A stretch of 37,672 nt of DNA from NCBI RefSeq assembly GCF_051903065.1, contig NZ_CP178442.1. One strand, written 5' to 3'. Shown in pieces: positions 9,555-10,315 of the stretch. Under the pieces are notes generated by a model. The model was not told where the DNA came from. It saw only the letters and a list, made by a program, of their open reading frames with translations, and did not search any database. The first letter of the stretch is position 1. Every line of letters starts with the position of its first letter. Source of the DNA: Escherichia coli (lineage in GTDB: Bacteria; Pseudomonadota; Gammaproteobacteria; Enterobacterales; Enterobacteriaceae). The position numbers and the translations under genes were made by a program.

Positions 9555-9806
9555 ATGCTCATAAAGATAATTAAATCTGTATTCAATTTTTACATGCTCT
9601 GTGTGCAGCCTGTTATTGGACTGGTTCTTGCGGGTTATGGTGCATGGAAATTTTCAGGTGACAGTATCTCAGCATTACTGGAACCAGCATCGTACTTTGT
9701 CATTGGAACTGTTGTTTTGTTTGTATGGTATATAGCATGGCAAAAAGAACGTTCTAAAGAAGAAGAGTTTAAATCAAGTATAAAACCAGAAGATTTTGTG
9801 AAGTGA
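9555..9806 (+). CDS. hypothetical small membrane protein (83 aa)
   Basis: ORF with aggggataaaaat RBS region, two predicted hydrophobic helices; AT-rich local composition. Confidence 0.4.
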   Translation: MLIKIIKSVFNFYMLCVQPVIGLVLAGYGAWKFSGDSISALLEPASYFVIGTVVLFVWYIAWQKERSKEEEFKSSIKPEDFVK

Positions 9807-9855
9807 CGATACGTAATAATACCAGTTTATAATCAGACATTAGGGCACTCAATCT

Positions 9856-10071
9856 ATGGAACACTGCATCTTTGATTTAGGCATTATAAACTATCATCCT
9901 GTCATTACATGGACAGTACCAGTTGCATTTTTCTTTTTAGTATTGCTGGCTGGTATAGTATTCAATATTGGCAGGAAAAGTAATCTAATCGTTTTCATCC
10001 TGGCAATGTTGCTCCCAGTAACAACGGTTTTCATTTTTATGTTACTGGGCGGTAAGATCGATATGTGCTGA
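9856..10071 (+). CDS. hypothetical small membrane protein (71 aa)
   Basis: Two hydrophobic segments; adjacent to other small membrane-protein ORFs in same orientation. Confidence 0.35.
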   Translation: MEHCIFDLGIINYHPVITWTVPVAFFFLVLLAGIVFNIGRKSNLIVFILAMLLPVTTVFIFMLLGGKIDMC

Positions 10072-10093
10072 CCAATTAAAAGAGGATTAAACA

Positions 10094-10315
10094 ATGATAA
10101 ATTCAATCGCGTTTAATCTTATAGCGTTATGTATAATATATATATCATCACTATTTAAAAAAAGTAACTTCAGAATATTTTATATAACTGTATCTACGTG
10201 CTCTTTATTATTATCATGTGTACCAAACAAGTACGGTATGATTGGTATAGCAGCATTGGTATTTACAACTATGTTAGGACCATTATTAATTATTTTAGAG
10301 GATAACAGACAATAA
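10094..10315 (+). CDS. hypothetical small membrane protein (73 aa)
   Basis: aagaggatta RBS-like sequence upstream; hydrophobic helices; AT-rich. Confidence 0.4.
   Translation: MINSIAFNLIALCIIYISSLFKKSNFRIFYITVSTCSLLLSCVPNKYGMIGIAALVFTTMLGPLLIILEDNRQ

Follow-up and report, generated by a model that had tools for sequence, protein, structure and literature searches.

Predicted small inner-membrane proteins encoded behind the parA-parG genes of the IncX4 plasmid pSD11

The locus and the coding status of its reading frames

The window analysed here, a stretch of 37,672 nt of Escherichia coli DNA, is the entire IncX4 plasmid pSD11 (NZ_KM212169.1; 37,672 bp; cfr-positive, from swine E. coli in China) in reversed orientation; window position x equals 12519 − r for record positions r up to 12518. 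Identity is 100% over the 1.1 kb around three small open reading frames (ORFs), which are the subject of the present work. ORF1 (83 aa; 9555-9806), ORF2 (71 aa; 9856-10071) and the hydrophobic ORF3 (73 aa; 10094-10315) follow each other on the + strand, with gaps of 36, 49 and 22 nt before them. Upstream on the same strand lie parA (8463-9122), encoding a ParA/MipZ-type P-loop ATPase of 219 aa with CbiA/MipZ/ParA family matches, and a parG-like gene (9216-9518) for its ribbon-helix-helix (RHH) partner of 100 aa, which gave a weak RHH_1 match; a tyrosine recombinase gene (7534-8358, +) is situated 5' of parA. On the other side, the genes converging on the ORFs from the − strand are a DUF2726/ddp3-like gene (10378-10905), an ORF of 134 aa in the 'bis' position between the latter and pir (11041-11445), and pir itself (Rep3; 11511-12518). 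The 134-aa product is a predicted multi-transmembrane protein for which no family match was obtained.

A first-pass annotation of this DNA had described an AT-rich cluster of three co-oriented genes of 71-83 aa between the par locus and the pir operon, each encoding mostly two hydrophobic helices. Most of this description was confirmed. The coordinates are exact, parA/parG and ddp3-bis-pir do border the cluster, and the G+C content (GC) is 0.32 over 9519-10377 and 0.26 in ORF3, compared with 0.46-0.48 in parA and parG. In none of 2000 dinucleotide shuffles of the 859-nt interval did the + strand give three ORFs with a length of 70 aa or more. Hydropathy profiles support two hydrophobic helices in all three ORFs, with a weaker third segment besides the two strong ones in ORF3. 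The AlphaFold2 models of ORF1 (helices 2-35 and 39-75; predicted local distance difference test score, pLDDT, 75) and ORF2 (helices 15-37 and 44-65; pLDDT 64) are helical hairpins, and both products are predicted two-helix inner-membrane proteins.

Selection was assessed by comparing the homologous DNA of plasmid loci, using the pairwise ratio of nonsynonymous to synonymous substitution rates (dN/dS, omega) and the number of variable sites at each codon position. For ORF1, dN/dS was ~0.2-0.5 in divergent pairs, with 15/17/32 variable sites at codon positions 1/2/3; the C-terminal half, comprising the second transmembrane (TM) helix and a charged tail, showed an omega of 0.18, and the N-terminal half with TM1 and the loop 0.75. 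For ORF2, dN/dS was ~0.1-0.3 and the variable sites numbered 21/15/47. Because of these ratios and codon-position patterns, ORF1 and ORF2 are to be regarded as genuine coding genes under purifying selection. An ORF of 70 aa antisense to ORF2 (9894-10106) was also considered and was rejected, as the codon-position pattern fits the + frame.

The case of ORF3 is different, and here the first-pass count of three genes does not stand. No selection signal was found among nine loci with little variation (12 nonsynonymous and 6 synonymous substitutions; omega 0.55; test against neutrality, p=0.18), and conservation is no higher than in the adjoining non-coding DNA (17/222 against 7/62 variable columns). 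An A7 homopolymer at 10157-10163 (+), in codons 22-24, reads A6, with a frameshift, in 3/9 loci and A4, with the frame kept, in one; this could reflect slipped-strand variation or homopolymer sequencing error. Of the records listed for 159 plasmids and for 136 RefSeq E. coli genomes, none annotates ORF3, and a word-indexed protein search returned no relatives outside IncX4-type contigs. It is therefore a real possibility, though short of even odds, that ORF3, and perhaps the whole pSD11 cluster, is decaying or non-functional, an open frame in T-rich DNA hitch-hiking between ORF2 and the terminator described below. The upstream region of ORF2 adds to this view: compared with three sister loci (L012, L013 and L002), ~11 nt (tttaggggatt) are absent from pSD11 at 9840-9855, and this deletion has removed, at least in part, the AGGGGA Shine-Dalgarno sequence (SD) found in the sister plasmids, so that ORF2 may be poorly translated in pSD11. 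On the other hand, a frame of 73 codons is improbable in DNA of 27% GC (the ORF3 sub-region alone gave an ORF of at least 70 aa in 12/2000 dinucleotide shuffles), the strong SD of ORF3 (AGAGGA, 7 nt before the ATG) is conserved, ~155 of the 159 plasmids match at least 80% of its length, nearly all listed matches being a single uninterrupted piece, and four independent indels (-1, -13, -18 and +1 aa) all keep the frame. The selection on ORF1 and ORF2 also speaks against decay of the entire cluster. ORF3 is thus best described as a plausible but unproven gene, and the cluster, as judged from these comparisons, as two real genes plus one plausible ORF rather than three established genes.

Signals that probably link the reading frames to par transcription

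Transcription signals were searched for with a crude consensus match, and the following statements concern sequence signals only. A sigma-70-like promoter (TTGCCA-17-TATACT) was detected 5' of parA at 8379..8407 (+), and no other + strand promoter-like site was encountered from there to the end of ORF3 (8408-10300). Promoter-like matches overall, and those on the − strand, were no commoner than in shuffles. Past ORF3, an intrinsic-terminator-like hairpin, TAAGCCCGCA-AATA-TGTGGGCTTA (10335-10358), is followed by a T-run (feature 10335..10368, +) and is kept in 9/9 aligned loci; it is the likely end of a parA-parG-ORF1-ORF2-ORF3 transcript. Since no internal promoter-like site and a single terminator after ORF3 were found, ORF1-3 most likely form a read-through tail of the parA-parG operon.

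The par region is further characterized by a 16-bp palindrome, GTGTATWAWTACACAC, with 16 strand-wise matches in the window against 0.97 expected. Copy 1, similar to this sequence (8353..8368), flanks the parA promoter and copy 2 (8424..8439) lies between the promoter and the parA start, copies 3 and 4 (9124..9139 and 9173..9188) occupy the parA-parG spacer, and copy 5 (9520..9535) begins 2 nt past the parG stop, 20 nt before the ORF1 ATG and 5' of the ORF1 SD. Palindromes hence precede parA, parG and ORF1, and this layout, including copy 5, is kept in every examined plasmid with the same par allele. Where ORF1 stands behind the other par allele, in locus L005, the junction keeps no more than the right half of the palindrome. 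In par2-type loci like that of pB171, the centromere repeats parC1 and parC2 flank parA-parB. The repeats of pSD11 are similarly placed 5' of the two par genes, within the pair and immediately 3' of it, but they are 16-bp palindromes, and the copy after parG could be a centromere, an operator or a roadblock. We know of no pB171 par2-type locus for which a small membrane gene has been described as a component. A sixth par-type copy occurs far from par (14904-14919), 5' of a J-domain gene and beside a perfect 36-bp palindrome, TGTTAATGCTAATGTATGCATACATTAGCATTAACA (14945-14980); these distant palindromes may represent a second ParG target or another operator.

The first-pass annotation had pointed out that small membrane proteins of plasmid maintenance regions are often type I toxins or holin-like killers. 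According to this explanation, ORF1-3 would be membrane-damaging killers of the type I, holin-like or kil type, restrained by ParG or by an antisense RNA that escaped detection, and active in post-segregational killing. We consider it very improbable. The predicted proteins do share with Hok/Gef, Ldr, TisB and DinQ/DqlB the character of small, very hydrophobic inner-membrane peptides encoded in a plasmid maintenance region, and in a sister plasmid the annotation includes a DqlB gene upstream of parA. Known type I toxins, however, possess a single TM helix and less than ~60 aa, their own promoter, a long 5' untranslated region (UTR) and an antisense RNA, whereas ORF1-3 have 71-83 aa, two helices (two to three in ORF3) and a place at the tail of the par unit, and no own promoter, 5' UTR, antisense RNA or Hok, Ldr or DinQ family match was found for them. 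The gaps are short as well, amounting to 9-58 nt before ORF2 in all 16 contexts examined and to 36 and 22 nt before ORF1 and ORF3, with promoter signals not above chance on either strand. Rfam, even at permissive E-values, returned only spurious microRNA, clustered regularly interspaced short palindromic repeat (CRISPR) and leader matches; the scan and this search agree with the earlier remark that no antitoxin or small-RNA partner is evident.

Only ORF1 has the outline of the class II holins and pinholins (such as phage 21 S21), namely two TM helices, ~80 aa, predicted cytoplasmic ends and a charged C-terminal tail. It differs from them in that no endolysin or spanin gene, phage context, or PHROG or Pfam holin match was found; pSD11 has no lysis gene other than that for the VirB1-type transglycosylase of the plasmid's type IV secretion system (T4SS), ~20 kb away, and no lysis gene occurs beside the relatives. 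The kil genes of IncP and IncN plasmids are repressed by partition-related Kor proteins, and the ParG-type palindrome directly before ORF1 recalls such accessory genes under or behind partition or regulator operators, although there is no sequence relationship between kil genes and ORF1-3. Frequent frameshifts and deletions, as would be expected of costly genes, would also suit killers, while the steady purifying selection on ORF1 and ORF2 and the presence of HicAB and RelE/ParE systems on pSD11 argue against them.

Relatives, par linkage and the variable cargo slot

Searches of Pfam, NCBIfam and PADLOC gave nothing at E<=1 but noise for ORF1-3, PHROGs nothing above noise, and word-indexed protein searches only close, unnamed relatives. 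A PDB sequence search likewise produced noise only, and Foldseek comparison of the ORF1 and ORF2 models with BFVD and PDB yielded nothing at E<=0.001 (best BFVD E=1.7, generic hairpins). Papers on pSD11 and on IncX4 plasmids, an IncX regulator study and a review of small membrane proteins make no mention of the ORFs. An exhaustive search of 1.84 billion cluster representatives with an ORF2 profile hidden Markov model gave 17 matches and no tie to a named family. These matches include five full-length lineages, whose members are always 71-72 aa long and have M1, C4, Y13, G33, K67, I68 and a terminal C71 as invariant positions. The ordinary homology search with ORF2 gave unnamed relatives only, on contigs of ~30-40 kb. 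The profile match of 1255 aa (P0100), with 16 matched stretches, is probably an artefact of hydrophobic repeats.

The genomic contexts of ORF2 are more informative. The gene follows a ParA gene co-directionally, at a distance of 11-1609 nt, in six ParA lineages: pSD11-type IncX4 plasmids, a second IncX4 par allele, pKP89 together with the metagenomic locus L025, a Salmonella IncFII plasmid, Atlantibacter IncFIB with Enterobacter IncFII plasmids, and a second Enterobacter plasmid. Across these lineages ParA identity is 22-38% and that of the ParA partners 13-36%, compared with 65-89% for ORF2 (28-35% against pKP89). As the gap upstream of ORF2 is short in every context, it appears that ORF2 has repeatedly joined different par operons, always as a promoter-less distal gene. 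In pKP89 the homologue (71 aa; 4001-4216, +) is located between parA and the RHH gene; RefSeq (Prokaryotic Genome Annotation Pipeline) annotates an opposite-strand ORF of 53 aa there instead (4036-4197, −), probably a mis-annotation. Locus L025 mirrors pSD11: ParA and its RHH partner are followed by an ORF2-like gene, further small ORFs and a convergent DUF2726 gene, and the ORF2 boundary is marked by a fall in GC from 0.47 to 0.35. In pCoo (3837-3988) and an O27 IncF plasmid (2836-2988), the first 51 ParG codons are fused upstream of ORF2. This remnant is of the pSD11 type (88-92% identity), and the fragment is flanked by insertion sequences in the region upstream of traM. Since ORF2 is preceded by these pSD11-type codons, the copy is interpreted as an IncX4-type par-ORF2 fragment captured by IncF plasmids of enterotoxigenic E. 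coli. A homologue on IncX3 plasmids is real, and its rating as a common IncX3 backbone gene was rejected, as it is confined to ~10 pKp13d-like plasmids. Some RefSeq names in these contexts seem wrong, namely 'peptidyl-arginine deiminase' or 'division plane positioning ATPase MipZ' for ParA in L002, L011 and L028, and 'malate dehydrogenase' for a 214-aa ORF overlapping IS26 in L001.

The ORF1 family is narrow and stands mostly directly behind the 100-aa ParG allele on IncX4, IncI2-typed and IncF plasmids. It was detected in 166-175 plasmids compared with 238 for this ParG, i.e. ~70%, so that the pairing is frequent and not fixed; ORF1 as an obligatory third par gene was rejected on this ground. 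Its C-terminal tail (QKERSKEEEFKSSIKPEDFVK; ...WQKERSKEEEFKSSIKPEDFVK) is conserved and carries 6 K/R and 6 D/E residues. In other plasmids a long form of 94 aa has a loop insert of 11 residues with two Cys.

The above associations raise the question of whether ORF1, with its cytoplasmic tail, and/or ORF2 are true third components of par, assisting ParA/ParG segregation or regulation, for example as a membrane link. The recurrence of ORF2 behind six ParA lineages and its position inside the pKP89 operon favour such a role, as do the frequent pairing of ORF1 with one ParG allele, the strong constraint on the ORF1 tail, the par palindrome between parG and ORF1, and the co-directional arrangement of all three ORFs within the presumed par transcription unit. 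Yet many plasmids, among them the epidemic mcr-1 lineage of IncX4, persist and conjugate without ORF1-3, ORF1 is disrupted by ISEcp1 in pDETEC49, ORF2 is predicted to expose only ~5 residues to the cytoplasm, its conservation far exceeds that of the adjoining par genes, which suggests repeated capture rather than co-evolution, and the drop of GC at the par/ORF boundary marks foreign cargo. True par components therefore seem improbable. Much the same low estimate applies to the more specific proposal that ORF2, with ORF1, is an unrecognised third, membrane-embedded accessory of ParA/RHH modules, captured repeatedly for a benefit to inheritance or establishment at the envelope.

Comparison of related plasmids showed that the interval from parG to ddp3 is the main variable cargo slot of the plasmid. 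The ORFs are conserved in related plasmids, one of the points on which the first-pass annotation had made its proposal depend; the DUF2726-proximal flank, however, is present in 527 plasmids and the whole cluster in only 134, the trio being absent from ~75% of IncX4-like plasmids. In ~33.3-kb mcr-1 plasmids the slot contains DUF2806-mcr-1-pap2, in line with a report of mcr-1.1 bordered by a hypothetical ORF and pap2 in this slot (PMC7843963). In pDETEC49 (L030), the left inverted repeat of ISEcp1 interrupts ORF1 after codon 5 (~2840-2860) and brings blaCTX-M-24; ISEcp1-blaCTX-M-24 is thus a second resistance cargo of the slot beside mcr-1-pap2. Other variants hold ORF2 and ORF3 only; ORF1, a frameshifted ORF2 and a TM protein of 140 aa; ORF1 with other small TM proteins or a Phd/Doc pair; or, in p53_D (L028; 1536-2870), four genes, namely long-form ORF1, ORF2 and ORF3 with that for a 93-aa 'membrane protein' of three TM helices between the first two. 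Recombination within the conserved half of ORF1 is indicated in p53_D, where the 3' end of this gene has left a duplicated remnant (2275-2349). Unrelated small TM proteins of 67-160 aa also occur between par and ddp3, or after ORF1/ORF2, in other plasmids (e.g. L025 4257-5061; L015 2554-4903; L011 4295-4594; L009 4343-4678), and the slot resembles an island made up of genes for diverse small membrane proteins. The cluster DNA was found in 194 of 5426 complete E. coli genomes, with 212 of 213 places on plasmids, and had no match in a phage DNA collection or in viral contigs (IMG/VR). Because some three quarters of IncX4-like plasmids lack the trio and the slot contents vary, ORF1-3 are, on this comparative evidence, accessory and dispensable for IncX4 replication, partition and transfer.

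What the encoded proteins may do

Immunity or exclusion, also raised by the first-pass annotation, found no positive support. Here ORF1-3 would be orphan genes protecting against a pore-forming bacteriocin, a contact-dependent inhibition (CDI) toxin, phage DNA entry or incoming conjugation. Immunity proteins against pore-forming colicins and class II microcins (e.g. Cvi, MchI) are often orphans. They resemble ORF1-3 as small polytopic inner-membrane proteins from AT-rich, horizontally shuffled plasmid DNA, and the many unrelated small TM proteins of the slot recall an immunity island. Consistent with this are also the predicted periplasmic location of the most conserved ORF2 residues and the fast evolution of the ORF1 periplasmic loop and TM1 (the N-terminal half mentioned above). 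Nevertheless, no bacteriocin, CDI or phage gene lies beside any relative in at least 16 contexts, no cognate toxin-immunity locus was present in the searched collections, the ORF2 family counts only 17 representatives among 1.84 billion, no immunity, PHROG or PADLOC family matched, and relatives in phages or viral contigs were lacking. As regards exclusion, the lipobox [LVI][ASTVI][GAS]C, a feature of the EexN/TrbK type, was not found in the ORF1-3 sequences, and an EexN exclusion lipoprotein is already annotated in the T4SS cluster of pSD11 (record 28371-28604). We thus regard orphan immunity or exclusion genes proper as unlikely, less so than killers.

Taking all the above into account, we favour, with a probability of roughly 0.55, the view that ORF1-3 form a promoter-less tail of the par operon in a cargo slot and encode non-lethal accessory inner-membrane proteins that rely on par transcription, and are not toxin-antitoxin or lysis genes. 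The ORFs would be transcribed by read-through from the ParG-autoregulated par promoter, resulting in low, steady expression, and their products would be inserted in the inner membrane at a par-coupled level. By the positive-inside rule, the basic loop of ORF2 (GRKSN) would be cytoplasmic, while its acidic conserved N-terminal peptide, Cys4 and the terminal Cys71 would face the periplasm, where a disulfide is possible. Given the predicted periplasmic location of Cys4, Cys71 and the N-terminal peptide, ORF2 probably acts on an envelope-side target. Both ends of ORF1 are predicted to be cytoplasmic, and its constrained charged tail could bind a cytoplasmic partner.

Certain points weigh against this view of a par-coupled membrane cargo. 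Besides the lack of a selection signal and the frameshifts in ORF3 and the lost SD of ORF2 mentioned above, weak AT-rich promoters within the cluster could escape a crude promoter scan, and a weak − strand promoter-like site (10337-10309) could yield RNA antisense to ORF3. The topology was predicted solely from hydropathy profiles and the positive-inside rule, and no homology, structural match or neighbouring gene indicates a specific function; the first-pass description of the genes as being of unknown function was borne out in this respect. Furthermore, the par association of ORF2 could reflect a recombination-prone or permissive site instead of a functional link.

Within the favoured view of accessory proteins carried on par transcription, the role we consider the most plausible, still tentatively, is a protective or envelope-modulating one, either exclusion- or immunity-like or through modulation of a host membrane protein. 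A par-linked maintenance accessory seems rather improbable, and a membrane toxin or kil-type gene more improbable still; the rest falls to little or no function, chiefly for ORF3. Several causes of the association with par are conceivable: the par operon may be of value as a tightly autoregulated platform for low-level expression, the site beside the res/par repeats may be permissive for recombination, or there may be a true functional tie. Of the results of this analysis, only the recurrent ORF2-par linkage was mildly unexpected. It may be added that the variable, dispensable slot, the link of the ORFs to the par operon and the doubtful status of ORF3 had been missed by the first-pass annotation.

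IncX4 plasmids are major carriers of mcr-1, of extended-spectrum beta-lactamase genes and of cfr, and the parG-to-ddp3 slot and its unloaded content help to reconstruct how resistance genes entered them. The ORF2 family, called 'hypothetical' by annotation pipelines, provides a testable lead by its occurrence behind six unrelated ParA lineages. An effect of the ORF1-3 products on exclusion, inheritance or the physiology of the envelope would make them relevant to plasmid fitness and host range; without such an effect, ORF1-3 would be ordinary hitch-hiking cargo.

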